The position numbers were made by a program, and so were the translations under genes. From a virus (taxonomy: Duplodnaviria > Heunggongvirae > Uroviricota > Caudoviricetes), in the IMG/VR virus record IMGVR_UViG_2617270991_000004: a stretch of DNA of 19,512 nucleotides; one strand, 5' to 3'. Positions 560 to 19,512 of the stretch are shown here, one piece after another (position 1 is the first letter of the stretch; each line of letters opens with the position of its first letter). The notes beneath the pieces are model-generated. The model ran no database searches. It was not told the DNA's origin and saw only the letters and a program-made list of their open reading frames with translations.

Positions 560-564
560 GGGAT

Positions 565-1263
565 TTACTGCGAAAGTTTGTTAATGGAAAGGAAGCTGCC
601 AAAGTTGCCGACATTATTGCGAAACTTACAGCCACTCAGGCATTTGCTGCATTTATCCTTCGTGATATCGGACGTCGGCTGGTCATATTCATCCGCGACC
701 GCCGGACCGCTATAACCGCACTCATCGCCGCGATAGGTCCAGGTGCAGGTGTTGGCCAGCATGATACGTCCCGGAAAAACAGCGCCATCCGTTTCCGTCG
801 GCGTGGACAGTACAAAGGAGGCACTCACCGCGCTCAGTTCGCTGCACTGCTCAATGCGCCAGCGGCTGATCACCTCCTGCTCCGGATCGGCGTAACTGTT
901 TCCGTTGACGAAGTTCACCGCATCCAGAAAACGGGCGTAAACCTTACGCCGGACCACCGTTCCGCCGACCAGACTCTGCATATCTTCCGCCATCCCGGTG
1001 ACCATACCGTACAGGTTAGAAACCGTCAGCGTGGGGCGCGTACTGGTGCCTTTGCCATTCAGTTCAAAACCGCTCCCCTGAATGGGATACGGCTGATACT
1101 GTCGCCCCTGCCAGGTGACCGGCTCACCTTTTTCGTTCTGCTCATTACAGAAAAAATAACGTTCTCCACCGACCTCTGTCAGGTCGATTTCCCAGAGCAC
1201 CACGCTGGCCGACTGCTCCGCACGGGTGCATTCATTCAGTGTTTCCTGCCGGATATCCTGCAT
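565..1263 (-). CDS. L: Minor tail protein L
   Basis: 232-aa ORF, same length and position as lambda gpL, with several Cys residues as in lambda L. Start ATG overlaps the M stop (TGATG). Confidence 0.88.
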   Translation of the reverse strand: MQDIRQETLNECTRAEQSASVVLWEIDLTEVGGERYFFCNEQNEKGEPVTWQGRQYQPYPIQGSGFELNGKGTSTRPTLTVSNLYGMVTGMAEDMQSLVGGTVVRRKVYARFLDAVNFVNGNSYADPEQEVISRWRIEQCSELSAVSASFVLSTPTETDGAVFPGRIMLANTCTWTYRGDECGYSGPAVADEYDQPTSDITKDKCSKCLSGCKFRNNVGNFGSFLSINKLSQ

Positions 1264-1592
1264 CAGTTCACCACCTGTTCAAACTCTGCGCTGAACTCAA
1301 CACGCAGCATACTGACCCGCGACGACCATTTTGCGCAGGTCACCTTTATCTGCCGCCACTCATAAGGCGGCGTCCACAGAAAGGATTTCCAGCCCCCGTG
1401 CTCTTCCAGAAACGACTCCAGTACCGTGGCCTCCTCACGGGGGACAGAAAGCGTCACGCTGTACGTTTTCAGGTTGGCATTCAGCCCGGCAGGCGCTCGC
1501 TGGGAATAGCCATCACCAAAGCGCACCTTTCTTACAGAAGGGACCGAAGCCACATCCATACCGGGTTTCACTTTCCAGCGGAAGGTCTTCAT
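1263..1592 (-). CDS. M: Minor tail protein M
   Basis: 109-aa ORF, same length and position as lambda gpM. ATGA overlap with the H stop. Confidence 0.88.
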   Translation of the reverse strand: MKTFRWKVKPGMDVASVPSVRKVRFGDGYSQRAPAGLNANLKTYSVTLSVPREEATVLESFLEEHGGWKSFLWTPPYEWRQIKVTCAKWSSRVSMLRVEFSAEFEQVVN

Positions 1593-4150
1593 CGTCCACC
1601 TCCGGAGAACAGGCCACCATCACGCATCTGTGTCTGAATTTCATCACGGGCACCCTTGCGGGCCATGTCATACACTGCCTTCATCATCTGTGGACCTGGC
1701 AGACCATTCGTACCGTCGTTCTGAATCACCACGTGATTGTTCTGATTAAAATTAATGCCTTCAGCCCGCCGCATCTGCGCCGGACTTCCGGCACCGCCCA
1801 CATAACCACCTTCCGCATAGCCCCGCATCAGGCGGTACAGGTTGCCCACGCCAATCCGGCTGGTTGCCTCCTTCGTGAAGACAAACTCACCACGGTGAAC
1901 AATCCCCGCTGGCTCATATTTGCCGCCGGTTCCCGTAAATCCTCCGGTCGCAAAATGGAATTTCGCCGCAGCGGCCTGAATGGCTGTACCGCCTGACGCG
2001 GATGCGCCGCCACCAACAGCCCCGCCAATGGCGCTGCCGATACTCCCGACAATCCCCACCATTGCCTGCTTAAGCAGAATTTCTGTCATCATGGACAGCA
2101 CGGAACGGGTGAAGCTGCGCCAGTTCTGCTCACTGCCGGTCAGCATCGCCGCCATATTCTGCGCAATACCATCAAAGGTCTGCGCGGCTGCACTTTTAAC
2201 CTGCGACATACTGTCCGTGGCGCTCTCTTCCCACTCACACCAGCCGGACTTCAGGCCTGCCATCCAGTTCCCGCGAAGCTGGTCTTCAGCCGCCCAGGTC
2301 TTTTTCTGCTCTGACATGACGTTATTCAGCGCCAGCGGATTATCGCCATACTGTTCCTTCAGGCGCTGTTCCGTGGCTTCCCGTTCTGCCTGCCGGTCAG
2401 TCACCCCCCGGCTTTTCGCATCAATGGCGGCCCGTTTTGCCCGTTGCTGCTGTGCGAATTTATCCGCCTGCTGCGCCAGCGCGTTCAGGCGCTCCTGATA
2501 CGTAACCTTGTCGCCAAGTGCAGCCAGCTGGCGTTTGTACTCCAGCGTCTCATCTTTATGCGCCAGCAGGGATTTCTCCTGTGCGGATAGCTGGCGACGT
2601 TGTGCCGCCTCCTCCAGTACCGCGAACTGATTTTCAGCCTTCCACAAATCCCGGCGCTGCTGGCTGATTTTCTCATTCGCTCCGGCATGCTTCTCCAGCG
2701 TCCGGAGTTCTGCCTGAAGCGTCAGCAGGGCAGCATGAGCACTGTCTTCCTGACGATCGCCCGCAGACACTTTCACGCCGGACTGTTTCGGCTTTTTCAG
2801 CGTCGCTTCATAGTCCTTTTTCGCCGCCGCCATCAGCGTGTTGTAATCTGCCTGCAGAATTTTCCCGTCCTTCAGTGCCTTGTTCAGTTCTTCCTGACGG
2901 GCGGTATATTTCTCCAGCGGCGTCTGCAGGCGTTCATAAGCCTTCTGCGCCTCTTCGGTATATTTCAGCCGTGACGCTTCGGTATCGCTCTGCTGCTGCG
3001 CATTTTTGTCCTGTTGAGTCTGCTGCTCAGCCTTCTTTCGGGCGGCTTCAAGCGCAAGACGGGCCTTTTCACGATCATCCCAGTAACGCGCCCGCGCTTC
3101 ATCGTTAACAAAATAATCATCCTTGCGCAGATTCCAGATGTCGTCTGCTTTCTTAAACGCAGCCTCTGCCTTAATCAGCATCTCCTGCGCGGTATCAGGA
3201 CGACCAATATCCAGCACCGCATCCCACATGGATTTGAAGGCCCGCGCTGTCCTGTCTGCCCAGGTCTCCAGCGTGCCCATGTTCTCTTTCAGGCGGCGGG
3301 TCTGGTCATCAAACCCTTTCGTTGCGGCCTCGTTCGCCGCCTGCAATGCCCCGGCTTCATCGCCGGAACGCTGCAACTGAGCAACATACGCAATCTGCTC
3401 CGCCGTCACGTTATGGAACTGGCGTGCCATCGCTGTCAGCCCTGACGTCGGGTCTGTGGTCAGCTTCCCGAAGGCTTCAGCGACCTTGTCCACCTCCACG
3501 CCGGATGCAGAGGAGAAACGCGCCACACTCTGGCTGATGGATGCAATCTGAGCCTCACCGCTTACTCCCGCCTTAACCAGTGCGCTGAGTGACTCGCTGG
3601 TCTGGTTAAACGTCAGCCCTGCCGCCTGCCCGGCTCTGGACAGGACCAGCATGCGATCTGCCGTCAGACCCGACTGATTGCCGGAAAGGACCAGCGTTTT
3701 GTTGAAATCGGACAGGGTTGAGTTGCCCTGATACCAGGCATACGCCAGCGCACCGGTCGCCACCGCCAGCGAGGTGGCCCCGACCATCGGCAGGGTGATC
3801 GCACCGGCAAGCCCCCTGAACATGGGGATCATCCCGCCGAAGGAGTCCTTAACCTGACCACCCTGTTGCAGCAGGATCAGCCACGGACTTTGCCCGCCTG
3901 CAAGCTGCGTGGCCACGTCGGTGAACTGTGCAGGCAGCATACGCATGGCGGCTTTATACTGCCCGACGGAAATCCCCGCTTTCTGTGCAGCCAGCGCCTG
4001 TCGGCTCAGCGACTGTTCAACAGCACTGGCGGTTTTTCTGGCGTCGGTATCCAGACCTGAAAAATGACGCCTTACCCGGCTCATCTGCTCATCGAAACGG
4101 ACAGCATCCAGACTCAGGTCAATAACAAGATCACCAACCGGCTGGGACAT
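1589..4150 (-). CDS. H: Tail tape measure protein H
   Basis: 853-aa ORF, same length as lambda gpH. Long Ala/Gln/Lys-rich coiled-coil middle, Gly-rich hydrophobic C-terminal segment, lies between G/T and M. Confidence 0.92.
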   Translation of the reverse strand: MSQPVGDLVIDLSLDAVRFDEQMSRVRRHFSGLDTDARKTASAVEQSLSRQALAAQKAGISVGQYKAAMRMLPAQFTDVATQLAGGQSPWLILLQQGGQVKDSFGGMIPMFRGLAGAITLPMVGATSLAVATGALAYAWYQGNSTLSDFNKTLVLSGNQSGLTADRMLVLSRAGQAAGLTFNQTSESLSALVKAGVSGEAQIASISQSVARFSSASGVEVDKVAEAFGKLTTDPTSGLTAMARQFHNVTAEQIAYVAQLQRSGDEAGALQAANEAATKGFDDQTRRLKENMGTLETWADRTARAFKSMWDAVLDIGRPDTAQEMLIKAEAAFKKADDIWNLRKDDYFVNDEARARYWDDREKARLALEAARKKAEQQTQQDKNAQQQSDTEASRLKYTEEAQKAYERLQTPLEKYTARQEELNKALKDGKILQADYNTLMAAAKKDYEATLKKPKQSGVKVSAGDRQEDSAHAALLTLQAELRTLEKHAGANEKISQQRRDLWKAENQFAVLEEAAQRRQLSAQEKSLLAHKDETLEYKRQLAALGDKVTYQERLNALAQQADKFAQQQRAKRAAIDAKSRGVTDRQAEREATEQRLKEQYGDNPLALNNVMSEQKKTWAAEDQLRGNWMAGLKSGWCEWEESATDSMSQVKSAAAQTFDGIAQNMAAMLTGSEQNWRSFTRSVLSMMTEILLKQAMVGIVGSIGSAIGGAVGGGASASGGTAIQAAAAKFHFATGGFTGTGGKYEPAGIVHRGEFVFTKEATSRIGVGNLYRLMRGYAEGGYVGGAGSPAQMRRAEGINFNQNNHVVIQNDGTNGLPGPQMMKAVYDMARKGARDEIQTQMRDGGLFSGGGR

Positions 4151-5002
4151 ATCTCACACCTCCCGGAATCCCCGCTGAAGCCATCATTAATGCGGCATCA
4201 TCCACCATGACATCCGCCACATCCGCAGACGATAAAATATCGCGCCCTCCGTCCCCACCGAACCGGACGCCTCCGGCAAGTCCTGCCGCTTTCTGCATCA
4301 GCATTTTGTCCTCATCCGGCCTCTCCACCTGCTCTTCCTCATGCCGGGGGACAAGCAGACTGAAATCAGAGGGATGCATATCCGGATCGCAAAAAAACAG
4401 GCTGAGTACAGCGTACGTCAGCCCGGAAAAATGCATATCCAGCTGGGTATCCTGAAAATAATGCGTGCGGTAAAAACGGTGCCAGTCGGCATATTCGGTG
4501 GATGTCATCCCGGCAAGCATGGCGCGCCAGTCGGGTCTCCCCATCTCACGCGCCAGTCTGAGGGCAAAGTTCAGCTCGCCGTCGAAGACTTTCCCGCAGA
4601 AAAATCATCATCAGTCAGCGTGTTATTTTTCGCCACTTCAGTAATATCAGTATCCGGACGAACAGCTTCGATCATCCCGGACAGGCACAACACCACGTCT
4701 TCCGCCCGGGCAATGGCATCGGCAGGCCAGGTGGTGAGCACTTCCTGCTCTATCTTCATCACGGCCTCATTCATTGACGGTGACTGCGTTTTCTGTGGAT
4801 GGTTATGCCACAGGGACATCGCCACCAGAAACGCGCCGGTTCTGACGAGATCTTCCACGCTTACCTGCAGGTTGCCGCAGGATTCTGCCTGTTCTGCACG
4901 CCGTTTCAGGAGGGCAAGATGCTCGATACGCTGCAGCGCAGACAATTCGGAAAGCGTGACAGACACACCGTTATATTCAAATTGTTCTGTTTTCAGAAAC
5001 AT
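4131..5002 (-). CDS. T: Tail assembly chaperone G-T fusion made by programmed -1 frameshift (T portion is ORF 4131..4544)
   Basis: Minus-strand heptamer G GGA AAG (plus coords 4590-4596) is in the G zero frame 6 codons before the G stop. A -1 slip reads GGG AAA GTC ... into the frame of the 4131..4544 ORF (MGRPDWRAML...). Same arrangement as lambda G/GT. Confidence 0.85.
4571..5002 (-). CDS. G: Tail assembly chaperone G
   Basis: 143-aa ORF starting MFLKTEQFEYNGVSVTLSELSALQRIEHLALLKR, close to recalled lambda gpG. Slippery heptamer GGGAAAG lies just before its stop. Confidence 0.9.
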   Translation of the reverse strand: MFLKTEQFEYNGVSVTLSELSALQRIEHLALLKRRAEQAESCGNLQVSVEDLVRTGAFLVAMSLWHNHPQKTQSPSMNEAVMKIEQEVLTTWPADAIARAEDVVLCLSGMIEAVRPDTDITEVAKNNTLTDDDFSAGKSSTAS

Positions 5003-5015
5003 GTATTACCTCCGT

Positions 5016-5768
5016 TTACCCTGCAGCGCCCGCTTCAGTAACGGTGACTTCAGCCACTGCGGCGAACTGACCATTTCCGCTCACCACAGGGATCTGCACC
5101 TTACCTGTCGCCACGCCGTTTACCGTAATTGTCATATCTTTCACACTAATGGTGGCTTTCGACGGATCGGCGGAAACCGCTCTGAACGTCTTGTCGGTTG
5201 CACTTTCCGGCTCAAAAGAAACCGTCAGGGTGGTTGTTTTCCCTTTTGCCACCGTACCGGATGTCGGCGTCACCTTAATCGCACTGACCGGCGTAATTTT
5301 GCTGCGTTCTTCCGCTACAGAAGGTTTACCCACGTTAGTGACTTTCACCGTGCGGGTGATCACTTCTTTCGCCGTCACGGCCTTACCGATACTGCTGACC
5401 CAGCCACGAAACACATCCACCGTGCCATTCGGAAAACGGATTTTATAGGCCCGGACATCGCCGCTTTCAAACCAGCCTATAAGCCCTTTCTGGCCTTCCT
5501 CTCCCGGTTTCCAGGCCAGCGTAAAACTGGTATCACCTGCAGATTTCTGCCCCTGCCCGGTCGCGGTCCAGTCCGCGTCTTCATCATCCAGGTAGTTATC
5601 ATCGTAGGATTCTGCCGTCATCTCGCCCGGCGTCAGATCCTTCACCTTAGCCAGTCGCTGCCAGTCATCGTCTGACAACGGGTTTGCATAAGCATCACCC
5701 TTGCCGTTGTAAACCCACAGAGTGGTACCGGCACCTTTTACCGGCTCAAGGGGATTTGGTGTTGCCAT
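5016..5768 (-). CDS. V: Major tail tube protein V with C-terminal Ig-like domain
   Basis: 250-aa ORF in the lambda gpV position. C-terminal Thr/Val-rich beta segment ([30 protein letters not shown]...) fits a Big_2-type Ig-like domain as in lambda V. Confidence 0.9.
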
Positions 5769-5775
5769 ATCGTCC

Positions 5776-6171
5776 TCACATCTCGTATGTAATGGAATAA
5801 GTCAGATCTGCAGAACTCCATAACGCCATATCGTCATCACGACGATACTCATAGCCCTGCGTAACCATCGTGGTAATCAGTCCTGCCAGTGCCGGGATCG
5901 CGGTCATCGCCGGGTAAATCCGGCTTTCCATCCACTGATCAAGCTCTGAATCCGGTACCTGTGCCGGTAAAAACACCTCAATATGCAGCGTGGCCCGCCA
6001 GGTATCTGCATCCAGCTCTTCACCGGTATACTCTGCATCCGTCAGATAAACCGCGATCGCAGGAAAATCCTCTTCGTCAAAAACAACGGGGCGACCATCA
6101 AACAGCGTCGCCCCGTGTTCATGCTGCTCGAGTGCATCCAGCACTGCGGCACGAATGTCAGTGTGTTTCAT
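5776..6171 (-). CDS. U: Tail terminator protein U
   Basis: 131-aa ORF, same length and position as lambda gpU. Confidence 0.88.
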
Positions 6172-6743
6172 CGTTTTATCGCAATCCTCAGTTGTTGTTT
6201 CAGCGCGTATGCCAGTTCTTTAGGCAGGCGTTCACGCCGGATACGGTCAACATTCTCATCAAATGCCTGTTTCAGTGGGGCCGCCATCGGGATTTTCACC
6301 ACCTGAATGGGAAGGCGATTACGCTTTTTCCTTCCCTTGTCGTCATTGCCCTCCTCATATCTGGCCTGGGGAAGACGTTGCATAACATGCCAGCGCCCAT
6401 TATTTAATCGCTGGATAAATGCCCGCTGATAACGATGCTGACCGGCTTTGAGTATGCTGTTCGGACGACGCCCCAGCATTCTGATCCCCAGCTTAATCAC
6501 AGGGAGATCACCGCGGTTAACGATAATTCTGGCATTCGGATTTCTGACCGTCGCCCGTTTCAGTCTGGACCGTTCCTTTACCAGTTTCCGTCTCACCCTG
6601 GTTTCCCGGGCAACCTGTGACGAAGACTGATTAATCGCCGTTATGGCCACGCGGTTAATGGTCATTGCAGAAGCAGCCGGAATGGCGTTTTTACGAACCC
6701 GGCTCAGATTGTCAATCGCCTGATCAAGCCCTTTTATCGCCAT
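6168..6743 (-). CDS. Z: Tail completion protein Z
   Basis: 191-aa basic protein in the lambda gpZ position (lambda Z about 192 aa). 4-nt overlap with U. Confidence 0.85.
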   Translation of the reverse strand: MAIKGLDQAIDNLSRVRKNAIPAASAMTINRVAITAINQSSSQVARETRVRRKLVKERSRLKRATVRNPNARIIVNRGDLPVIKLGIRMLGRRPNSILKAGQHRYQRAFIQRLNNGRWHVMQRLPQARYEEGNDDKGRKKRNRLPIQVVKIPMAAPLKQAFDENVDRIRRERLPKELAYALKQQLRIAIKR

Positions 6744-6757
6744 AATTCACCCTGCGT

Positions 6758-7111
6758 TTATCGTCGCCGGTTAACTGCGGGTGGTTGCCCACGGTTGAGC
6801 CAGAGATAACAGCTGCCCCCGTCATCCGGAGAAACACGATCCACCCAGAATGTCTCACCATTAATGGTCAGCGTGTCACCACGCCGCACGGCACGAACCG
6901 TATCCGTCCGCACAAATAATGACGGGCAGCTTCCTTCAATACGGACCCCGCCACCGGCAACCCCCAGCGACTCCGGATCGTCAAAAACCCCCTGAACTTC
7001 GCTGCCACACTGTGCCCCCGAGGTGAACTGCGCACAGAGTCCCATCACTTCAACGATCGTACTGTCTACCCCGGCGAGGGCAGCATCAAAGGCATTCTGA
7101 AAATCACGCAT
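6758..7111 (-). CDS. FII: Head-tail joining protein FII
   Basis: 117-aa ORF ending ...VDRVSPDDGGSCYLWLNRGQPPAVNRRR, near-identical to the recalled lambda gpFII C-terminus. Confidence 0.9.
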   Translation of the reverse strand: MRDFQNAFDAALAGVDSTIVEVMGLCAQFTSGAQCGSEVQGVFDDPESLGVAGGGVRIEGSCPSLFVRTDTVRAVRRGDTLTINGETFWVDRVSPDDGGSCYLWLNRGQPPAVNRRR

Positions 7112-7487
7112 ATTCAGCCGTTCCGTGCTGTATCATGGCCGTTGCCAGTGATGATGGCACCAGAACACGCATACCCCGTAACGCCAGCTCAACGGGACGA
7201 CCTGTCTCCGGGCAATACCCCATTACTTGCAGGCACTTCCGTACCCGGACGGCTTTAACATCATCCGGAGCATCCGTGTTGTTCAACTGCTCACCATCGT
7301 CTGTGTGATTTTGATCAGCCCCGCTCTCATCAGAGTGCATAATGCCCTCCGGGGAAACAGCAAGCTCCTCTTCCCACTCAGACACACGTTGCGCAATATC
7401 CGCAGCACTCCCCGACATATCCGCCTCGCGCCCCAGCAGGCCAGCCAGTTGACGAAGACGATTCAGATTTTCTTCTTTTGTTGCCAT
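7104..7487 (-). CDS. FI: DNA packaging protein FI
   Basis: Acidic protein in the lambda FI position. Start placed at the internal ATG (MATKEENLNRLRQLAG...) because it has an AGGAGG SD 6 nt upstream; the 16-codon upstream extension of the track ORF (to 7535) overlaps a terminator hairpin. Confidence 0.8.
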   Translation of the reverse strand: MATKEENLNRLRQLAGLLGREADMSGSAADIAQRVSEWEEELAVSPEGIMHSDESGADQNHTDDGEQLNNTDAPDDVKAVRVRKCLQVMGYCPETGRPVELALRGMRVLVPSSLATAMIQHGTAEYA

Positions 7488-7500
7488 CTCAGCCTCCTGT

Positions 7501-7531
7501 GAAAAAAGACACGGGGGCATTTCGCCCCCGC
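7501..7531 (-). terminator. Intrinsic terminator-like hairpin between E and FI
   Basis: Minus-strand RNA has a 7-bp all-GC stem CGGGGGC/GCCCCCG with 5-nt loop, followed by UGUCUUUUUUC. It starts just after the E stop codon. Confidence 0.7.
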
Positions 7532-7538
7532 TCACGGA

Positions 7539-8567
7539 TTATTTCACCTGCACCACCACAAACTCATCCGGATCCGGCAGCACCATCAGCGGTGCGGACT
7601 GCGTCATGGTGAATTCACGGGCCGGATCGCCCACAGTCAGCCAGTGTTTCGGATAACGGGAAGAGGCCACCACACCTTCGGACAACGCCTGCGCATCCTG
7701 AATGGCACCATAGCAACGAATGCCCTCTGCTGCCGTATTCCCCAGGACCAGTGTGCCCACCGGCAGATAACGTTTTTCGGTACCGTCGTCTGCCACATAA
7801 GACGTTTTCGCCACCACAATGGCCAGATCACCGTAATACCCTTTGAAAGACACCACCGCTCCCAGGTCTTTCACTGCCGTTTCGAGTTGTGAATTTGAGC
7901 CGCGACGGGTATCCAGTTTTTCGCGGAACAGCTTAAAGCCATTCAGCAGACGCCAGACCGTACCGTCCATAATGGCAATATTTACAAGACCGCTGGCCTG
8001 ATCGCAGTAAAGGTCAATATCATGCGTCGGATCAAACGTATCACGGTCCTGCTCAGACCATTTTTTACCGTCGGCCTGCTCAATGTTATTTCCTTCAGAG
8101 CGTCCGAAATCCACCTCGACCGTGTCAAACTGTTCCCCTTCCATGGTGTATTTGCCATACAGCACGGCATTCACCGCCTGCATTTCTTCCACCTGGACAA
8201 TGGCGTGCTCTTCCTGTTTGAGGTTATCGGTAATGATACGCAGACGACGGTAGGCCGGGTCGTTCAGCTGAGCCGGATCTTCACCAGGAAGGCGCTCAAC
8301 CGCCTGCTGGTAATTAAATTCGTGTTTGGGCTTGACGTAGCCCGGACGTAACACGCGGGTTTCACCACCGCGATGGCGAAGCACTTTTCCTTCAACGATC
8401 GGGGAGACATAGGCCGCCACCGGCGTTTTTCCGGTAATTTTGTCCAGCATCACCTCTTCGGTGTGGAAATTCACCGTACGGCGGAAAAACAGCTCCAGAA
8501 ACAGCGCACGGAATTTAACTTTTTGTTCGGTATAACCGAGTAACTGGCGGGTCGTAAACAATCCCAT
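7539..8567 (-). CDS. E: Major capsid protein E
   Basis: 342-aa ORF with long collinear motifs shared with recalled lambda gpE (VSPIV.G, PGYVKPKHE, DPAYRR, VEEMQAV, KYTM.GE, KEKLDTRRGSNS.LETAVKDLG, GDPAREFTM.QSAPLM). Confidence 0.93.
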   Translation of the reverse strand: MGLFTTRQLLGYTEQKVKFRALFLELFFRRTVNFHTEEVMLDKITGKTPVAAYVSPIVEGKVLRHRGGETRVLRPGYVKPKHEFNYQQAVERLPGEDPAQLNDPAYRRLRIITDNLKQEEHAIVQVEEMQAVNAVLYGKYTMEGEQFDTVEVDFGRSEGNNIEQADGKKWSEQDRDTFDPTHDIDLYCDQASGLVNIAIMDGTVWRLLNGFKLFREKLDTRRGSNSQLETAVKDLGAVVSFKGYYGDLAIVVAKTSYVADDGTEKRYLPVGTLVLGNTAAEGIRCYGAIQDAQALSEGVVASSRYPKHWLTVGDPAREFTMTQSAPLMVLPDPDEFVVVQVK

Positions 8568-8596
8568 AAATCAGTTCCTTTCATTAAGAAATCAGT

Positions 8597-8616
8597 CAGG
8601 CCAACGCGGTGGCCTG
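8597..8616 (-). other. Stem-loop in the D-E intergenic region
   Basis: Perfect 7-bp inverted repeat CAGGCCA / TGGCCTG with 6-nt spacer, between the D stop and E start. May modulate mRNA processing or translation; function not established. Confidence 0.4.
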
Positions 8617-8624
8617 ATAACGTG

Positions 8625-8972
8625 TTACGGCAGCGCCGCGTGACTCAGGGCACTGCCGGTAAAGGCGTTGGCCTTTTTGTGTTCATCCACACTTTCAGGC
8701 CAGCGGATTGCCTCCGTCGCAAAGGTCCCCGACTTGTAATAGGTCAGCACCGCCTCTGTGCCTTCAAGCGGCAGTACCAGTATGCCAACCGCACTACCGG
8801 CTTTCTGTCCGTCCCAGACCACCAGTTTCCCGGTGGCCCCATCCAGCATCAGGGGTGTCAGTGCCGGTGTTGCCGAGGAAATCCCGCTGCTGCCTGTGGC
8901 GGTGTGAGCCGGATCATTACCGGCAAAAATACGTACTTCCGCACGCTGTTCAGTGATGGTTTTCGTCACCAT
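8625..8972 (-). CDS. D: Head decoration protein D
   Basis: 115-aa ORF containing NDPAHTATG...TPLMLD...KLV.WDG...AVGIL...YKSGTF, matching recalled lambda gpD motifs. Confidence 0.9.
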   Translation of the reverse strand: MVTKTITEQRAEVRIFAGNDPAHTATGSSGISSATPALTPLMLDGATGKLVVWDGQKAGSAVGILVLPLEGTEAVLTYYKSGTFATEAIRWPESVDEHKKANAFTGSALSHAALP

Positions 8973-9008
8973 ATTGTTAAAACCTCGTATTGATGTTCAG
9001 CACTGACT

Positions 9009-9611
9009 TCATGGCATGGCCATGAGCATTTTCACGTCCGCATCACCGTCTTCTGACGCCTGTGACACGCCCCCCTGGACCGCAGCCGGTGAATGGTTCG
9101 CCATGAAATGTTCAAACAGGGCGGTTGTGGATGCAGAGACCGGTTCTGCCTTACCTGATCCCGCAGCCAGCACAGCCCGGGCGCTCTCCACGGTCATTCC
9201 CGGGCAGGCAGCCAGCTGTTCAGCCTGCGCCTCAGCCCCTTTTGCCTCATCCAGGGCCATGATCTGATCACGGAGTGATGGTCCGGCATTCGCCTGCGGT
9301 GAAGCAGCCAGGATCGGGCGGGCTTTTTCCACCGTCATCTCCGGCATCGCCGCCAGCGTTACTGCCAGTTGTTCACGACCGTTCGCTTCTTCACACGCCA
9401 TAATGCGATCGGCTTCACTCTGCGCGGATGCCACCGGCTGCTGCGGTGCCGCCGCGGCCAGAATCGCCCGGGCCTGTTCAACGCTCATGCCCTGTTGCCC
9501 TGCCAGCATCGTGGCAAGCTGTTCACGTCCTTTCGCTTCCTGGCATGTCAGGATCCCCATCACTCGCTGGTTCTCCTGCACGGCGGCTTCCGTTGCAGTT
9601 AATTGCGGCAT
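9009..9611 (-). CDS. Nu3: Nested in-frame scaffolding protein Nu3 (internal start inside C)
   Basis: Internal ATG at 9611 is in frame with C and preceded by a strong SD (tcAGAGGAGGcact ATG). Product starts MPQLTATEAAVQENQR... and shares the C stop, as for lambda Nu3. Confidence 0.6.
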   Translation of the reverse strand: MPQLTATEAAVQENQRVMGILTCQEAKGREQLATMLAGQQGMSVEQARAILAAAAPQQPVASAQSEADRIMACEEANGREQLAVTLAAMPEMTVEKARPILAASPQANAGPSLRDQIMALDEAKGAEAQAEQLAACPGMTVESARAVLAAGSGKAEPVSASTTALFEHFMANHSPAAVQGGVSQASEDGDADVKMLMAMP

Positions 9612-10514
9612 AGTGCCTCCTCTGACATTACTGTTCAGCGCCGTGGCCATCACACTGATGGCATCCGACGCATTGATTAATTCATCCGCCAGCCCGGCCT
9701 CAATGCCGGACTGACCTTCAAAAACGGCGGCCTCTGTTCCCGTGACCGCATCCACAGACAACCCGGTATACATCGCCACTTTTTCGGCAAACATCCGGTG
9801 CGCCGCATCAATCCGCTGCTGCATATCCTGGCGAACCTCTGCCGGCAACGCTTCAAACTGATTGCCATCCACCTTGTGCGCCCCGGCATAAATCAGCGTG
9901 ATATCCACACCGGCCTGCGCCAGATGACCGGCATAGCTGACATGGCTCATCATCACGCCAATGGAGCCGATACGGGATGTCTGGGTAACCAGCCGTCGGG
10001 AGCAGGCCGACGCCAGCAGCATGGCTGCAGAACAGGCCGTGTCATTGCACAGTGCCCAGACCGGCTTCTGCTGACGGAGGCGGTAAATCATGTCAGCGCA
10101 GTCAAACGCGCCGGCGGCCTGCCCGCCCGGACTGTCAATGTCCAGCAGTATGCCCCGCACCTGGCTATCTGCCATTGCCTGCTGAAGACAGGCGACAATG
10201 CCGTCATAGCCAGTCATTCCGGAAAATGGCCGCATCCCCCCCAGCCGGTGCACCAGCGTGCCGCTCACCGGCAGTACCGCAATACCGTTCACCACCCGGT
10301 AAACACGGGCCGGTCGTTTACCTCCGGCCATGTACTCGTCCGTTTCAGCCAGCATTCCGGGAGCATCAAGCTGTACCTGCTGTTGTGGTACCGAAAGACT
10401 TGCTGCCCCCATCTCGCGCCCGAGCGCGCAAAAGAAAACCCGCGCATAGGCGGGCTCCAGAAGCAGCGGTTCATTGAATGCTGCGGCAATAATGTGTGAA
10501 AGATTACGTCTCAC
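9009..10514 (-). CDS. C: Head maturation protease / minor capsid protein C (S49/ClpP-like), with C-terminal scaffold region
   Basis: 501-aa ORF in the lambda C position. N-terminal half fits an S49 peptidase-like fold by position. C-terminal third holds three tandem repeats of about 37 aa. Confidence 0.88.
   Translation of the reverse strand: MRRNLSHIIAAAFNEPLLLEPAYARVFFCALGREMGAASLSVPQQQVQLDAPGMLAETDEYMAGGKRPARVYRVVNGIAVLPVSGTLVHRLGGMRPFSGMTGYDGIVACLQQAMADSQVRGILLDIDSPGGQAAGAFDCADMIYRLRQQKPVWALCNDTACSAAMLLASACSRRLVTQTSRIGSIGVMMSHVSYAGHLAQAGVDITLIYAGAHKVDGNQFEALPAEVRQDMQQRIDAAHRMFAEKVAMYTGLSVDAVTGTEAAVFEGQSGIEAGLADELINASDAISVMATALNSNVRGGTMPQLTATEAAVQENQRVMGILTCQEAKGREQLATMLAGQQGMSVEQARAILAAAAPQQPVASAQSEADRIMACEEANGREQLAVTLAAMPEMTVEKARPILAASPQANAGPSLRDQIMALDEAKGAEAQAEQLAACPGMTVESARAVLAAGSGKAEPVSASTTALFEHFMANHSPAAVQGGVSQASEDGDADVKMLMAMP
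9194..9563 (-). repeat. Three tandem in-frame repeats (about 111 bp, about 37 aa each) in the C/Nu3 scaffold region
   Basis: Repeated protein units .IM.C.EA.GREQLA..LA..P.M.VE.AR.ILAA.. are visible in the translation, with matching DNA repeats. Boundaries are approximate. Confidence 0.6.
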
Positions 10515-12096
10515 GTGGTGTTGTCTCCTCTTCCGGCCTGCGACTCTCCGCTATCTGCTGCTGATACGCCTGCGCTATCCACACCGGACGTGAGAGTCCG
10601 GCTTTTTCCCGCTCTGCAGATTCCCTGACCTGCTGGCGGAAAATGTCCTGATAATCCTCGCCCATCAGCGCCAGCTCTTTCTCATACGTGCTCAGTCCGG
10701 CCTCAATGCGCATCACTGATTCCTGAACCTCCTTGAGCCCGTCAATGGCCATTCTTCCGGCTCCAATCCACTCAGCCCGTGACCAGGCTGATCGCGCCTG
10801 ATAAAAATCAAAACGTGCCCGTGGCGGACGAATAATCCCCCGAAGAAGTGCCTCTTCCAGCCAGCAGGAAAACATCTGCGTGGCCAGCCGGGACGCAATA
10901 AATTTTCGCCGCCCCATAAAATAGCGCCACGACTCATTGGCGGAGGCGCGGGCACTTGAATAACTGACCTTCGAGTAATCACGGGACAACTGTTCGTAGG
11001 AAACGCCAAGACCGGCGGCGATATACCGCAGCAGCGCCTGTTCAAGCGCCGAAAATCCATTGTCTGAATCCTGCGCGGTCTGAAGTTTCAGATCATCACC
11101 GGGGAAAAGGTGCGGAATTTTGACACCGCCCAGCGTCACGTGATTCGTGTCATACCAGGTGGAGAACTTCTCCAGAATATTAATAAGCGGATTATCCTTC
11201 TGCCCCTGCGGCGCACCGGCGATATATTCAAAGGCCTTTTCGGTATCAAGTTCACTTTCAATCGTCGCTGCATACATCGCCTTCACTATGGCCGACTGAA
11301 GCTGTGTTGCCTGCAGGGAATCGAGCATCTTCAGCCGTTCCATGACGCTGTAAAACTGATTAGCCCCACGGGTCTGCCCGTCCTCCACCGGCTCGAAAAT
11401 ATGCAGCATGGCCGGACGCCCGGTGGGAAGTTCACGCGGGATCCGTTCCCATCGTCCACTACCAGAGAACGGAAAATCGTCCTCACAAATATGGTACGCG
11501 ACGGCACGGCCATATCGATCGACCTCCACACCGGCCCGCAGAAAACGGTTCCCCATACCGTGTCCATGCGTGTCCACCCGTTTCGGACTCACGGCTTTAA
11601 AACGCGTACGGAATAACTGCGTGGTTTCCGTATCCCAGACCGGCTGCACAAAGATTTCGCCGTTAAACGCATGAACGCCCACACCTTCACGGATAAATTC
11701 CGTGAACGTGCGTTTTCCTTCCACGTCGATCTCACCAAACATCCCTTCGGCGTATTCCGACCAGGCCGCCTCCACCTCATCGACAAAGCTTTTTGCTGCG
11801 GTCTCCCGCATCCCCAGCCAGCGCCAGTTCGGACGGTAGCTGATCAGAAACATATGCCCGACAATGTGATCCTTATGCAGAGCCACCGCATTAGCCGCTA
11901 TTCCGTTATTGCGCACCAGATCATCTGCCCGGGCATTCCCCAGACGCAACGCGGGTAGCAGGGCCGCATCGGCACTCTGCGCCGGTGGCAACCACTCCGC
12001 CATTTGCCCGCCAAATCCTGCGCCGCCCCCGTTGTAGCTGAGACTCTCACGAAGCGGAACGCCGTTCACATCAATCAGGACAGGCGTTCGTTTCAT
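10504..12096 (-). CDS. B: Portal protein B
   Basis: 530-aa ORF with long collinear matches to recalled lambda gpB (RGNARADDLVRNNG, FEPVEDGQTRGAN.FYSVME, LQSAIVKAMYAATIESELDT, LLRYIAAGLGVSYEQLSR, SYS.ARASANESW.YFMGRRKF, IGAGRMAIDGLKEVQE, AGLSTYEKE). Confidence 0.95.
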   Translation of the reverse strand: MKRTPVLIDVNGVPLRESLSYNGGGAGFGGQMAEWLPPAQSADAALLPALRLGNARADDLVRNNGIAANAVALHKDHIVGHMFLISYRPNWRWLGMRETAAKSFVDEVEAAWSEYAEGMFGEIDVEGKRTFTEFIREGVGVHAFNGEIFVQPVWDTETTQLFRTRFKAVSPKRVDTHGHGMGNRFLRAGVEVDRYGRAVAYHICEDDFPFSGSGRWERIPRELPTGRPAMLHIFEPVEDGQTRGANQFYSVMERLKMLDSLQATQLQSAIVKAMYAATIESELDTEKAFEYIAGAPQGQKDNPLINILEKFSTWYDTNHVTLGGVKIPHLFPGDDLKLQTAQDSDNGFSALEQALLRYIAAGLGVSYEQLSRDYSKVSYSSARASANESWRYFMGRRKFIASRLATQMFSCWLEEALLRGIIRPPRARFDFYQARSAWSRAEWIGAGRMAIDGLKEVQESVMRIEAGLSTYEKELALMGEDYQDIFRQQVRESAEREKAGLSRPVWIAQAYQQQIAESRRPEEETTPRET

Positions 12097-12299
12097 AACC
12101 TCACTCCCAGCGGACGACGGCGACGTCGGGTTGTCCCCTGTACCGACTCCGCATCATTGATCGCCCGGTTAAGCTCATCCAGAGAAGCCGCCGTATATTC
12201 AATTCTGCGACCATCTTTCTGGACAGACACCACCCGTTTACCGGTTAATAAATCAAGGCGCGCCTGACGCAGCGCCTGTAGTTCAGCGACTGTAACCAT
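12093..12299 (-). CDS. W: Head-tail connector protein W
   Basis: 68-aa ORF containing LTGKRVVSVQKDGRRIEYTAASL, matching recalled lambda gpW. ATGA overlap with B. Confidence 0.9.
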   Translation of the reverse strand: MVTVAELQALRQARLDLLTGKRVVSVQKDGRRIEYTAASLDELNRAINDAESVQGTTRRRRRPLGVRL

Positions 12300-14211
12300 T
12301 CACTCCTCCGGACAGCTTCGCTGCCAGTTCTTTAAGGGTTGGCCGGGTCGTCTCTTCTTCCCGGGATTTTGCCAGTACAGCCAGATCAAGCTGCCAGCGT
12401 TGCACGGACACACGTAATGCCGCATAGGCATACACCAGGCAGTCCAGCGCTTCGTTACGCCGCTTTTTGTTATCCCACAGCAGACGCATCTTTCCTTTTT
12501 CCCACTTCTCCACAAGCTCTTCCGCGACCAGTTGCTGCGCCTCTGTCTGCGAAAAAATCTCCGGATCATCAGGAAAACGGATGGCATACGACGTGGCTTC
12601 ATCCGCAGGCGTGGGATCGGCTTTCATACGGGCATAGAGAATTTCTTTTGCGGTGTCCGTCCCCACTTCACACAGATACACGCCCCGCTGATTGCGGGTT
12701 TTCGGCATGGTGATCACCGGCTTGCCATAGACAGATGCGCCTTTTACCGGCAGCACCCGGAAAACACCGTGTTTTTTTGACCTCTGATAGACAATTTCAC
12801 CATCGATCCCCCCGGTGTCCCAGCAGACACGGGAAATGGTCATTTCGGTTCCGTCTGCATGGCAGTATTTTTTGTTGATCGCCGCATCCACACGTAACAG
12901 CGTCTCTTCCTCATCGGGACGGCCCATAATGATGATTTTATCCACCAGAAAAGCTTCCTCTCCCGGTGCCCATCCCCAGACATACATCTCAAAACGGTTT
13001 CGCTGCGAGTCAATGCCCGCCGTCAGATAAACCACCCGGGCTGGCACCGCCGCCGTGTAATGCACGACCTTATCCATCAGTACCTGGTGATCGAGTTTTT
13101 CGCCCACGGCCTCTTCCCAGGTCTCGCCCAGCGTGGTGTTCACAAAGGTTTTCAGGCCGTTGGGATCTTTCAGTGCATCCAGCCAGTCATAGACTATCTG
13201 TACCCAGGTGGTGAACGGACTGTACGCCGTCCAGATATGGAACGTGATGGAGCGCGGCGGCGGAATTTCATTATCCGCGGCGCTGAAAAACGTCAGACCG
13301 TCACGGGTCCACATCCCCGTGTTTTCACAGATCCACCGCCCGTTGCTCTGGTCAAGCTCAGACTGATGGATCACGCAGCCATGATGTTCACAGAGGTAGA
13401 AAACGCTTTCGGGGCTGTCCTTCTCCCATTTAAGGCCAAAAGGCGTGGATTCATCGCCAAATTTCAGATACTGCTCCTCCCCACAGTGTGGGCAGGGCAC
13501 ATAAAAACGCATGAAATGCGCCGACTCGTTGGCCGCTTTTTCGATCTGGCAGGTGCCTTTGATTTTAGGCGTCGAGCCGCGAATGGATTTGGGCCATACA
13601 GAGCCCTCAATACGTTTATCCCCAAGCAGGGTTGGCGAACCCTCTTTTTCGACATCCGGTTCGAACGAGGAAAGTTCGTCATAGCAGACCACGTCCACGG
13701 ATTTTTCACGGTAGTTTTTAGCGGCAGCCCCGCCCAGGCACCAGAAGCCCACGCCCGATGAAAAACGTTTCAGCGTGAGGGTATTATCACGATGTTTACG
13801 CCCAAACCACGGTGCAAGATCGAGTAAAACCGGCACATCCCTGATCGTGGGTTCCACATGAGATTTCATAAAATCTTCAGCAGCAGAATCCGTGGGCTGG
13901 AAAAGAAGGCTGTTGCGTGATTTATGCTCAATAAAATAAGCCTCCACTCCCAGCAACATCTTTGTATAACCAACACGGGCAGATTTAATCAGATTAACAG
14001 TGCGGATCCGGTCATTCCCCATGCTGTTCATGATGGCAACCTGAAACGGCAGTGTTTCCCACCGCCCCGGGGTGTAAGATGACTCTTTCGGAAGGTAATA
14101 ATGTCGATCTGCCCACTGAACTGTCGTCAGAGGGACAGGAATTTTTAGCGCAAGGAGGCCGGTTGCTATCGCTCCTGCAGAATTAGCCGCCCTCAGTTCG
14201 TCTGAAATCAT
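12283..14211 (-). CDS. A: Terminase large subunit A
   Basis: Collinear with recalled lambda gpA ([78 protein letters not shown]). Start set at ATG 14211, which gives the lambda-like length of 642 aa; the track ORF extends to an upstream ATG at 14253. Confidence 0.92.
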
Positions 14212-14731
14212 CAATCCACCTGCGCACATTCTCACCGGCTTCAGAAGCCACATCGGATGCTTTCGCGATTTCAGTTTTCACAGCATCAAGATGTACGGGT
14301 GATATATCAGGGTATTTACGCTGCAGTGTCTGAGGGACACGGACAAGGATCCCTGATATATTCTGTGCCACTCGCTGAAAGATGTAGGTAAATAACTCCG
14401 TCTCGAGGACAAGGCCTTCCTCACGAGCATTTTTCAGCTCCTGTGCATCGGCCTGTGCCTTCGTCAGTCGGTAACGTTCGTAATCAATGGTGCCGGGCTG
14501 AAGGTCTGATTCGCTGGCAGCCCTCAAATCCTCGATCTCTTTACGGAGTTTTTCGTTTTCAATATCAGCTTCCCTCTGCGCATACCACTGAATGGCAGCA
14601 GTTGTATCAAAAACTGATTCAGTCCCTTTCCCTCCACCAGAAACTAGTGGTAACCCCTGACTCTGCCAGGCGGTGATGGTCCTGACATCAACGCCAAAAA
14701 TATCGGCCAGTTTTTTCTTATTGACGTTCAT
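14183..14731 (-). CDS. Nu1: Terminase small subunit Nu1
   Basis: 182-aa ORF starting [36 protein letters not shown], close to recalled lambda Nu1 (winged-HTH N-terminus). cosB lies immediately upstream and the 3' end overlaps the start of A. Confidence 0.93.
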
Positions 14732-14866: not shown

Positions 14867-14900
14867 CCCTAAAAATTTTCATAAATAGCGAAAACCCGCG

Positions 14901-14912
14901 AGGTCGCCGCCC
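14901..14912 (-). other. cosN: 12-nt cohesive-end sequence (GGGCGGCGACCT on the minus strand)
   Basis: Plus-strand AGGTCGCCGCCC at 14901-14912 is the reverse complement of the lambda 12-nt cos overhang. The flanking sequence also closely matches the recalled lambda left and right ends. Confidence 0.9.
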
Positions 14913-15118
14913 CGTAACCGGTCGGATCGCCGGAAAGGACCCACGAAATGATAATGATTATCATCTATATAAGGTTTATCACAACATGTGTGTACGCCAT
15001 CAAACCACGAGAAATAATCAATTATGACGCAGGTATCGTATTAATTGATCTGCGTCAAATTAACGTAAAAGCAACTTCAGATAATACAAATCAGCAACAC
15101 TGAATATGGGGAAACATT

Positions 15119-16396: not shown

Positions 16397-16495
16397 TCAC
16401 CACCAGCGTATCTGACCGATGAAATAACCGGAGGCCATAATCACAAACACCAGCCAGATAAGAATGAACTTCCAGGTGGATAATTTTTCAGCCAT
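16397..16495 (-). CDS. Hypothetical 32-aa single-TM peptide immediately upstream of Rz
   Basis: Hand translation gives MAEKLSTWKFILIWLVFVIMASGYFIGQIRWW with stop TGA 1 nt before the Rz ATG and GGGAGA 8 nt upstream of its ATG. The frame is open for 71 codons; an upstream GTG would give 57 aa. Confidence 0.3.
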   Translation of the reverse strand: MAEKLSTWKFILIWLVFVIMASGYFIGQIRWW

Positions 16496-16570
16496 CACTC
16501 GAATCTCCCGAATCAGTTTGCTAAAATCAAACACACTTTCTCCTTTGACTTTTCCAGAGTCAGGAAACAC

Positions 16571-16603
16571 AAAACCCCGCTTGCAGCCAACAAACGGGGT
16601 TTT
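16571..16603. terminator. Inverted repeat / hairpin between R and Rz (possible bidirectional terminator)
   Basis: Perfect 9-bp inverted repeat AAAACCCCG ... CGGGGTTTT with 15-nt spacer. T-rich on the 3' side in both orientations (TTTTTACTTTTATT on plus, UUUUGUGUUUCC on minus). Confidence 0.45.
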
Positions 16604-17227: not shown

Positions 17228-17284
17228 GGATATTTATCAGGATTTATCGGTTCCGGCCCCCTGGATATGTTAAGTCTTCAGCCT

Positions 17285-17303
17285 GCCAGTGGTGGGCACT
17301 GGC
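17285..17303. promoter_or_regulatory. Palindrome GCCAGTG-N5-CACTGGC in the divergent region between R and the 104-aa gene
   Basis: Perfect 7-bp inverted repeat with 5-bp spacer, followed on the plus strand by GTTTTAT, about 50 bp upstream of the 104-aa ORF start. Could be an operator or a small terminator. Confidence 0.4.
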
Positions 17304-17355
17304 GTTTTATCTGCTGGCTGAAAATATATCTGACAATTCCAGTCGAGGATTAACC

Positions 17356-17670
17356 ATGCATAACCATCAACATAATTATGATTTATACCTGCAAGCCATA
17401 AATGAGCGGGTAAAATCGGAATGCCTTTTACTCCTCCCGCAAGAACACGAAGCAGTAAAGGCCATTCAGGCTGAACCGTATGGAGCTCTCACTACTGCAA
17501 CTCTCAGTATTATATCCGGAGCATTAACACCAACCTTGCTCCTTCGCCTGAAAGACAATATAGATGACTGGTTAAATGAAGAATTAAGTTACCTTGATTG
17601 CGAATGGGATAATCATTACGCCAAATCACAAAAAGATCGCCTGTTCAGACAATTATCAGGTAACAGATAA
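17356..17670 (+). CDS. Hypothetical 104-aa protein, convergent with the 330-aa gene (part of the S-R insertion)
   Basis: ATG at 17356 with a GAGGA SD 6 nt upstream; product MHNHQHNYDLYLQAINERVKSECLLLLPQEHEAVK...LSGNR. The track ORF 17104..17670 extends further 5' but that part is antisense to R. AT-rich; no family recognised. Confidence 0.6.
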   Translation: MHNHQHNYDLYLQAINERVKSECLLLLPQEHEAVKAIQAEPYGALTTATLSIISGALTPTLLLRLKDNIDDWLNEELSYLDCEWDNHYAKSQKDRLFRQLSGNR

Positions 17671-17676
17671 CAGTAC

Positions 17677-18669: not shown

Positions 18670-18672
18670 CGT

Positions 18673-18888
18673 CTACTCTCCCCGAGCCGCCTTACGACGG
18701 TCCTCTCTGATTTTGAAATACAGGTTAGTCAGATATGTCAGCAGCCCAAACAGCAGACTCCCCAGCACGCCTATTGCCGCCCACTGAGACGGGGAAACCC
18801 TGTCCAGCAACTGCAGGAACCAGTAGCCCGTTCCCACCGCTGACGTGGTGTATGACACACCTGTTGTGATTTTTTCCATCTGGTACAT
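18673..18888 (-). CDS. S: Holin, phage 21 S-type pinholin with dual-start motif
   Basis: From ATG 18888 the product is [71 protein letters not shown] (71 aa), matching the recalled S21 C-terminus. M-Y-Q-M gives two starts 3 codons apart. The longer track ORF (to 18993) would run through a terminator hairpin. Confidence 0.9.
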
Positions 18889-18920
18889 ACCCCGTCTCCC
18901 GTTATCCGGAAGCTGACAAC

Positions 18921-18952
18921 AATAAAAAAGCCACCAGTTAAGTACTGATGGC
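18921..18952 (-). terminator. Intrinsic terminator upstream of the holin gene (candidate tR'-like late terminator)
   Basis: Minus-strand RNA has an 8-bp stem GCCAUCAG/CUGGUGGC (one G-U pair), 7-nt loop, then UUUUUUAUU. Lies between the partial upstream ORF and the holin start. Confidence 0.7.
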
Positions 18953-19037
18953 TCTGATAACTCATGCAGGCGTCTCAGACGACCCACTGACACTACCGGT
19001 GAGTTTAACGATACCTTCCATTTGACTGGCTCACTTT

Positions 19038-19512
19038 TTATGATGATGCCGGTGCATTTATCTCCAGCACCAGACTTTCTATCTCAACGCCATACGTTGC
19101 ATTTTTGGTAATATCCGTCAGCGTCAGTGCATTTAGTCCCACTGTCAGACTGTCTTTTATGACCTGGAATGCCGGGCCAGCCACTCCATTCAGTTTCGGA
19201 GTAACCGTGGCACTGCCGGCGGTGAACACCAGCTCCAGCGTCTGCCAGTCGTTACTGTAATTCCCGAACTCGCCCAACTTTGTGTTTCCTGCTTTCTTGT
19301 GATGCATCAGATTCAGTTTGCCGTCTGTGGTCTGGGTGAAGAACGACATCAGGAACGGGTTACCAGTCCCGGTCATCGCCACGACGTCAGGTAACGCTAC
19401 ATCGGTATACAGATAAATTCCCAGACCGAACTGGTTGTTGGTCAGTGCGCCTGACAGTCGAAACTTACAGCTCAGTCTGCCACCCCGTGTCAGCAGGGAG
19501 ACTGCGTCATCC
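19038..19512 (-). CDS. Hypothetical protein, partial (N-terminus beyond right window edge)
   Basis: Minus-strand frame is stop-free from the window edge to the stop at 19038 (at least 158 codons). C-terminal product ...[63 protein letters not shown] has alternating beta-like pattern. Not recognisably Q antiterminator. Confidence 0.5.

Follow-up and report, generated by a model that had tools for sequence, protein, structure and literature searches.

During our analysis of the IMG/VR virus record IMGVR_UViG_2617270991_000004 (Caudoviricetes) we examined a 19,512-nucleotide (nt) stretch of DNA, referred to here as the window, in which the gene S at positions 18673-18888 had been singled out by an initial annotation as the holin gene of a lambdoid lysis module. 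A prophage of Escherichia coli B1-56 matches the window with 100% identity, and the minus strand carries all of its late genes (Table 1). Read in the direction of transcription, the locus comprises the C-terminus of a nanS-p-like gene, a terminator-like hairpin, S, a YdfR-family gene, a convergent open reading frame (ORF) on the plus strand, the endolysin gene R, a further hairpin, a 45-residue ORF, the spanin genes Rz/Rz1, an AT-rich spacer, cosN, the terminase genes Nu1 and A, and the head and tail genes. We consider it very probable that S supplies the holin of a complete lysis cassette of the Shiga toxin (Stx) phage/Qin type (S followed by ydfR-like cargo, by R, by a small ORF and by Rz/Rz1), residing in an E. 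coli lambdoid prophage that combines a phage-21-like lysis mechanism and dispensable cargo with head and terminase genes of the phage 21 lineage.

The 71-residue product of S matches the Pfam family PF04971 ('Bacteriophage P21 holin S') over profile positions 1-63 of 64, with 112.5 bits (cut-off 26) and an E value of 9e-33. It also matches phrog_9876 and phrog_20 ('holin') and is labelled 'class II holin family protein' in RefSeq. An ungapped alignment with S21 of phage 21 gives 56 identities over 71 residues (78.9%), and EssQ of the Qin prophage lies at the same distance (78.9% identity); no lambda protein matches S. The C-terminal 41 residues are near-identical to those of S21, and the protein ends in KAARGE, with a net charge of +3 in the C-terminal tail. 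The first transmembrane domain (TMD1, residues 8-26) contains 58% Gly/Ala/Ser/Thr and has a mean Kyte-Doolittle hydropathy of 0.18, compared with 63% and 0.22 in S21, and TMD2, with a mean hydropathy of 1.42, retains G40, S44 and G48, the G-x3-S-x3-G face of S21. From the PF04971 and PHROG matches, the S21 alignment and the TMD composition we conclude, at the level of sequence, that membership of S in the phage 21 S holin family is real and far beyond chance. A protein 100% identical to S is annotated as 'Phage holin lysis protein S' in E. coli O157:H7 SS52, dozens of IMG/VR contigs encode a holin with the same 100% identity, and near-identical holins of Stx2a phages have been classed as P21-family pinholins (PMC10462455). 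A longer candidate for the holin, a GTG-initiated ORF of 106 residues (18673-18993), was rejected: its extension holds the terminator-like hairpin situated between nanS-p and S, and RefSeq and the homologues use the 71-residue form. By analogy with the lambdoid late-operon paradigm, this hairpin is presumably read through by Q-modified RNA polymerase.

S begins with M-Y-Q-M, so that in-frame Met codons 1 and 4 would specify products of 71 and 68 residues. Both starts, as Met1 and Met4 or in the shorter form M-x-M, are kept in approximately 100 of 120 clusters of homologues. The M-x-x-M forms include MYQM (32 clusters), MYRM (19), MKSM (18), MLRM (5), MDQM (4), MNQM (3) and MMKM (3), among others, and the M-x-M form is represented by MKM (4). 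Residues 2 and 3 vary freely (YQ, YR, KS, LR, DQ, NQ, MK and others), and the retention of both Met codons while the intervening residues vary therefore argues for selection on both starts. Upstream of S, a predicted RNA hairpin sequesters the Shine-Dalgarno sequence of Met1. Its CUUCCG/CGGGAG stem is identical in 18 of 20 distinct upstream sequences, drawn from 80 related loci, with a variable loop; one of the two remaining sequences carries a break in the stem (G to A) and the other keeps the stem via a G-U wobble. Phage 21 has an analogous Shine-Dalgarno-sequestering hairpin of other sequence upstream of S21. This suggests that the hairpin is a candidate regulator of start-codon choice.

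Some features of S nevertheless weigh against a dual start that operates as in phage 21. The M-Y-Q extension adds no basic residue, and the net side-chain charge of the N-terminal tail is 0 for both products, compared with +1 and 0 for the two products of S21. The antiholin character of S107 and S21-71 has been credited to an additional positively charged residue at the N-terminus (review PMC9636201). The extra positive residue of the longer product (Lys2 in S21-71) has no counterpart in S, an absence that touches the antiholin claim and not family membership. Approximately 44 of the 120 clusters, S included, likewise have neither Lys nor Arg at positions 2-3 (MYQM, MDQM, MNQM, MHQM and MFQM). 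It is possible, although we regard it as doubtful, that the Met1 product is not an antiholin, and that the two products are equivalent holins or only a single start is used, the dual start being formal rather than regulatory in this allele. The charge of the two N-terminal tails, the role ascribed to the extra residue in S107 and S21-71, and the large number of clusters devoid of it would be in keeping with this explanation, but it leaves aside the retention of both Met codons in spite of free variation between them and the conservation of the hairpin over the Met1 Shine-Dalgarno sequence, as expected for a tuned choice of start; furthermore, we infer that the N-terminal amino group could still give a difference in charge. 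The initial annotation, which described S as an S21-type holin with an M-Y-Q-M dual start, was thus correct as to the family and to Met1 and Met4, but the basic residue of the S21-71 antiholin is missing. The 'dual-start motif' is true at codon level; an antiholin role for the Met1 product is at most putative, with one defining feature absent.

The endolysin R matches the lysozyme family PF00959 with 85.3 bits, and its catalytic triad E35-x8-D44-x5-T50 (EGNHTTAYRDGAGIWT, from residue 35) occupies the same positions as in R21. The N-terminus, MNVKIR-YGLSAAVLALIGAGASA-PEIL, consists of a basic n-region, a 17-residue hydrophobic stretch rich in Gly, Ala and Ser, and a proline (Pro24) directly after A-S-A. 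Residues 7-25 (YGLSAAVLALIGAGASAPE) contain 58% Gly/Ala/Ser/Thr, compared with 62% in the signal-arrest-release (SAR) segment of R21, and align to R21 residues 5-19 in 3HDE. The alignment of R with full-length R21 (PDB 3HDE) and RrrD (4ZPU) starts at residue 9 of R and therefore includes the SAR segment of these proteins. A SAR-like N-terminal segment had been recognised in the initial annotation, and its composition and its alignment with R21 agree with that description. R possesses eight Cys residues (52, 74, 109, 118, 136, 150, 157 and 172), none of which lies in the SAR-like segment, whereas R21 has four; such a pattern would fit additional periplasmic disulfide bonds and regulation of the R21 type rather than the P1-Lyz type. 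R is 89.8% identical to RrrQ of Qin, and it shares 93-97% identity with the endolysins of Stx phages, which occur in more than 300 phage records. Its identity to R21 is 31.5%, and no lambda protein matches it.

A basic n-region (MNVKIR), an h-region of 17 residues and A-S-A at residues 21-23 are also what an ordinary cleavable Sec signal peptide would present, in which case R would be secreted rather than tethered to the membrane as a SAR endolysin. A proline at position +1 is known to block signal peptidase I, however, and with Pro24 immediately after A-S-A the N-terminal segment would probably remain uncleaved. The correspondence of this segment with the SAR segment of R21, in alignment and in composition, likewise argues against a cleavable peptide, as does the partner of the pinholin family: such a holin could not let an enzyme out of the cytoplasm and would serve no purpose for one that is freely secreted in active form. 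It is therefore highly unlikely that R is an ordinary secreted lysozyme.

Pairing of the predicted SAR endolysin with the pinholin is evident from their position in the same late-operon cassette, and in eight related loci only 4 nt separate the same holin gene from R. The SAR behaviour of R (export, tethering and release) is assigned by analogy with phage 21, and some points tell against our reading of the cassette as a whole. As far as we found, no experiment shows SAR behaviour of this allele or of R proteins of the RrrQ/Stx type, and the SAR endolysins of Stx phages are called 'predicted' by Pinto et al. 2021 (PMC8136144), who report a predicted SAR endolysin together with a pinholin in 99% of Stx phages. 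In addition, no Shine-Dalgarno sequence is obvious for R, and the 1.4 kb that separate it from S include an antisense ORF; the balance of expression may therefore differ from that in phage 21.

Comparison with known systems places the cassette among those of Stx-converting lambdoid phages and the Qin prophage. Stx-converting phages of the 933W/H-19B type have the order nanS-p, S, R, Rz/Rz1 in common with the window, and nanS-p adjoins S in Stx2a phages (PMC10462455). A YdfR-family insert is also found in Stx2 phage 86 and in Stx1a, Stx2a and Stx2c phages. The source prophage differs from these phages in that no stx genes are annotated in it (RefSeq) and in that tRNA genes and a partial ORF precede nanS-p in B1-56; it has the layout of a Stx phage minus the toxin. 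In B1-56 an ompC-like porin gene, a truncated DNA methyltransferase gene and the genes for tRNA-Ile, tRNA-Arg and tRNA-Arg are located outside the window (L003 26561-28935), between a Q-like antiterminator gene (quuD) and nanS-p; an ARAGORN scan of the window itself returned zero tRNA genes.

The Qin prophage of E. coli K-12, which is defective, has the same gene order as the window (essQ, ydfR, rrrQ, rzpQ/rzoQ ... ynfO, nohA), with a DUF1327 gene in the holin-endolysin interval and a DUF3950 gene preceding that for the small terminase subunit. The YdfR protein of Qin has 103 residues, in contrast to 330 here, and only the first 74 residues align (42%); EssQ starts M-K-S-M, with a Lys, in place of M-Y-Q-M; and the spanin RzpQ is a DUF2514 protein that does not match the Rz of the window. 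The arrangement S21 (68/71), R21, Rz/Rz1 of phage 21 is the experimental paradigm for a pinholin combined with a SAR endolysin. The window resembles it in the family and length of the holin, Met at positions 1 and 4, the G-x3-S-x3-G of TMD2, the identical C-terminal tail, the fold, triad positions and SAR-like N-terminal segment of the endolysin, and the type of head and terminase. It differs from phage 21 in a holin that is 79% identical and starts M-Y-Q-M instead of M-K-S-M, in an endolysin with 31.5% identity and eight instead of four Cys residues, and in the cosB repeats; S and R abut in phage 21, with no insert between them. The lambda arrangement (S105/S107, R, Rz/Rz1) shares with the window the late-operon position upstream of cos, the embedded Rz/Rz1 and the dual-start concept. 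Lambda S is a class I holin with three TMDs that makes large holes, and lambda R is a cytoplasmic transglycosylase; neither matches the cassette of the window. This result is in accord with the proposal, made in the initial annotation, that the lysis strategy is that of a pinholin with a SAR endolysin and not that of lambda. The attribution of the lysis module to phage 21 is appropriate for the holin family, but R is far closer to RrrQ (89.8%) than to R21 (31.5%) and S is equally distant (78.9%) from S21 and EssQ. The cassette is best assigned, from these comparisons, to the Stx-phage/Qin lineage, with an endolysin distantly related to R21.

By homology with phage 21, our guide to how R would be exported and tethered, how pinholes would form and whether the Met1 product might act as an antiholin, lysis would be expected to proceed in the following manner. 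Q antitermination would drive late transcription through the hairpin upstream of S, and R would be exported by Sec and held inactive in the inner membrane by its weakly hydrophobic, uncleaved SAR segment. The pinholin of 68 or 71 residues would accumulate, and its Gly/Ala/Ser/Thr-rich TMD1 would exit the bilayer, leaving TMD2 to oligomerise (G40-S44-G48 face) into small pinholes that would collapse the membrane potential. In the phage 21 S family such pinholes are heptameric and about 2 nm in size, and they depolarise the membrane but retain a cytoplasmic endolysin. Depolarisation would free the SAR endolysin, which would refold and degrade the murein, and Rz/Rz1 would then disrupt the outer membrane.

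S and R are separated here by 1445 nt (17228-18672) of lower-GC DNA. We surveyed 68 IMG/VR loci in which the holin is 97-100% identical and R could be detected. In these, the gap between the stop codon of S and the start of R takes at least 22 sizes, ranging from 4 to 1316 nt, all shorter than that in the window, and the junction is filled by differing combinations of the N- and C-terminal modules of the YdfR family. The gap of 4 nt occurs in eight of the 68 loci, and the insert is therefore dispensable for the pairing of S with R. Among 5426 complete E. coli genomes, 2918 contain parts of the insert, as do 96 phage records, some of them from Stx1a, Stx2, Stx2a and Stx2c phages. To judge from these sequences, the S|R junction is a hypervariable recombination hotspot.

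The major component of the insert encodes a 330-residue YdfR-family protein. Its residues 1-100 match PF07041 (DUF1327) with an E value of 3e-40, and like ydfR in Qin it is placed between holin and endolysin genes, consistent with membership of the family. RefSeq annotates only the first 112 codons, as a 'partial' pseudogene. The full-length match to phrog_1085 (E value 5e-172) and the existence of 'YdfR family' protein clusters of 329-330 residues in E. coli indicate that the predicted gene is intact and full-length. The family is modular, with a DUF1327 N-domain, an optional helical insert of 30 residues and a C-terminal module that is also found alone. Identity to K-12 YdfR is 41.9% over the first 74 residues, and an AlphaFold2 model built from a 33-sequence alignment has a mean predicted local distance difference test score (pLDDT) of 45.7 and is confident for residues 1-70 only. 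K-12 YdfR was reported in 2026 to bind the catalytic N-terminal half of RNase E by means of its first 72 residues, and the protein may bind RNA (PMC13232886). A known defence system is unsupported, in that the cargo ORFs gave no PADLOC match; an NCBIfam search with them yielded nothing informative. Terminator-like hairpins with long T runs occur at two sites on the plus strand (18116-18132 and 18229-18256), downstream of the ORF encoded there and in antisense orientation to the YdfR-family gene; they may be chance matches. The other component of the insert, the convergent 104-residue ORF, has no match in Pfam, NCBIfam or PADLOC, and the late transcript must cross it, in antisense, to reach R.

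These observations allow a broader proposal, which we regard as unlikely in its entirety. According to this scheme, MYQM-type pinholins and the approximately 40% of family clusters in which neither Lys nor Arg occupies positions 2-3 would use their dual start by a means other than the antiholin mechanism of extra positive charge, with timing set otherwise, either by the hairpin that masks the Shine-Dalgarno sequence of Met1 or by the difference in the N-terminal amino group, and the S|R junction would be a site reserved for genes of YdfR-family proteins that are expressed late and target the RNase E of the host.

The initial annotation had contrasted a phage-21-type lysis module with head, tail and terminase genes close to those of lambda, and had placed the cargo insertion and AT-rich spacers at the seams of the lysis module. 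The latter is apparent from base composition: S, R and Rz have a GC content of 54-56%, the inserts at S|R, R|Rz and Rz|Nu1 have 41-46%, and the mean of the window is 53.7%. Per-gene comparisons with lambda, phage 21 and Qin and a 300-nt identity profile also support mosaicism, with no uniform identity to a single reference phage across the window. Breakpoints in the profile fall near 1500, 3900, 6900-7500, 13800 and 14912 (cos).

The proposed contrast between the modules was overturned. Over the head and terminase region (7500-13800) nucleotide identity is 87-99% to phage 21 and 61-73% to lambda, and the head and terminase proteins are 94-99% (Nu1 82%) identical to those of phage 21, compared with 54-68% to lambda. 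Similarity to lambda of the kind originally described is confined to K, L, M and H (91-100%), and these are also 89-97% identical to phage 21. We conclude from these identities that head and terminase belong to the phage 21 lineage and not to that of lambda. The combination of an S21-family holin with 21-type heads is therefore phage 21's own arrangement. The alternative put forward originally, that recombination joined a lysis module of the phage 21 type to morphogenesis genes of the lambda type, could draw on nt 1-1500 (K, L and M), which are approximately 100% identical to lambda, on the 87% identity of positions 14913-15253 to the right end of lambda, and on the failure of lambda to match S or R. 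Nevertheless, lambda and phage 21 hardly differ from each other in K, L, M and H in any case, R is related to RrrQ much more closely than to R21, and for head and terminase the alternative is refuted by the identities above, so that we give it scarcely any credence. The head and terminase genes are instead of the phage 21 lineage, and the lysis cassette of the Stx/Qin lineage.

The tail genes G, T, V, U and Z are 59-82% identical to their counterparts in both phages at the protein level (29-82% with FI included), and these genes together with FI appear from their sequences to form a third lineage. The stretch 3900-7500, which belongs to this lineage, has 90-100% nucleotide identity to the ECOR phage PhiR12_2_star; the genes on either side of it are 94-100% identical to lambda or phage 21.

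Table 1. Features of the window, listed from its first position, with protein identities (%) to phage 21 (OL657228) and lambda (NC_001416)
Feature	Position	Strand	Basis and remarks	Phage 21	Lambda
Tail genes K (partial), L, M, H, T, G, V, U, Z	1..6743	-	Protein identity to lambda and phage 21
K				89	91
L				97	99.6
M				91	100
H				97	95.5
Head genes W, B, C/Nu3, D, E, FI, FII	6758..12299	-	W to E phage 21 type; FI divergent
W				97.1	54.9
B				98.7	61.0
C				97.2	53.6
D				94.8	54.8
E				94.0	62.2
FI				48	29
FII				87.2	69.6
Terminase genes Nu1, A	12283..14731	-	PF07471; phage 21 type
A	12283..14211	-		94.8	67.5
Nu1	14183..14731	-		82.3	56.4
cosN GGGCGGCGACCT	14901..14912	-	Sequence; blastn coordinates
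YlcI/YnfO-family (DUF3950) protein, 61 residues	15119..15304	+	PF13132; NF041551
Rz i-spanin, 155 residues	15928..16395	-	PF03245, E 6e-48; phrog_13
Rz1 o-spanin lipoprotein, 61 residues	15990..16175	-	Inside Rz in other frame; PF06085, E 2e-20; phrog_3198
45-residue ORF, one hydrophobic helix (...WKFILIWLVFVIMASGYFIG...)	16397..16534	-	Stop overlaps Rz start; phrog_6632, E 1e-29; no RefSeq annotation
Terminator-like hairpin, 14-bp stem	16571..16603	-	R|Rz spacer (42.6% GC); consensus scan
R, T4-lysozyme-type endolysin, 177 residues	16694..17227	-	PF00959; predicted SAR N-terminus, residues ~7-23 (nt 17159-17209)
104-residue ORF	17356..17670	+	Convergent with YdfR-family gene, antisense to late transcript; phrog_1853, E 2e-42; RefSeq hypothetical WP_032188670.1
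YdfR-family protein, 330 residues	17677..18669	-	PF07041, phrog_1085; N-terminal DUF1327 and long variable C-terminal part; accessory cargo; start 3 nt past S stop
S, class II holin of phage 21 S family, 71 residues, predicted pinholin	18673..18888	-	PF04971; Met1 at 18888, Met4 at 18879
Predicted hairpin CUUCCG-GAUAA-CGGGAG sequestering Met1 Shine-Dalgarno	18896..18912	-	RNAfold structure
Terminator-like hairpin, 12-bp stem and T run, between nanS-p and S	18927..18955	-	Consensus scan and RNA fold
NanS-p-like SASA-family sialate esterase, C-terminal part (DUF6645)	19038..19512	-	PF20350; RefSeq 'SASA family carbohydrate esterase', 617 residues

At least 80% of the 19.5-kb window is covered at a single place in 1021 of the 5426 E. 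coli genomes, and the induced ECOR phages PhiR12 and PhiR5 cover 79-81% of it at approximately 92% identity with the gene order kept. The cassette is real, and because of this prevalence and of the published pairing of pinholin and SAR endolysin in such phages it represents ordinary and already known biology. Its value as a discovery is small, since a large fraction of E. coli genomes carry this type of cassette and the literature already describes it as a pinholin/SAR-endolysin system. The use of the analysis lies in the corrected assignment of the modules (head and terminase of the phage 21 type, lysis genes of the Stx/Qin type) and in the recognition of the 330-residue YdfR-family gene as intact despite its label in RefSeq. 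It also raises the questions of whether a dual-start pinholin devoid of the basic residue can give rise to an antiholin, and of what role YdfR-family proteins play when the lysis operon expresses them.

Downstream of R, the 45-residue ORF with its single hydrophobic helix could specify a small membrane protein that is made together with the lysis proteins. Rz and Rz1 are about 66-67% identical to their counterparts in lambda and phage 21. The AT-rich spacer between Rz and cos extends over 1.2 kb and contains a 46-residue ORF and, on the plus strand, the DUF3950 gene, whose product is 90% identical over its first 52 residues both to YnfO of Qin and to a sequence translated from the right end of lambda. 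The cosN sequence is the same as in lambda and phage 21, and it divides DNA resembling the right end of lambda from left-end DNA of the phage 21 type.

The cosB region (14754-14912, minus strand) contains the repeats CAGATCC, GGATCTG and CAGATCC at 14854-14860, 14794-14800 and 14754-14760, respectively. Their positions and orientations are those of the terminase-binding sites R3, R2 and R1 of phage 21, although the sequence differs. The divergence of Nu1 from its phage 21 counterpart is strongest in the first 30 residues. It is possible that these repeats and Nu1 constitute a third packaging specificity.

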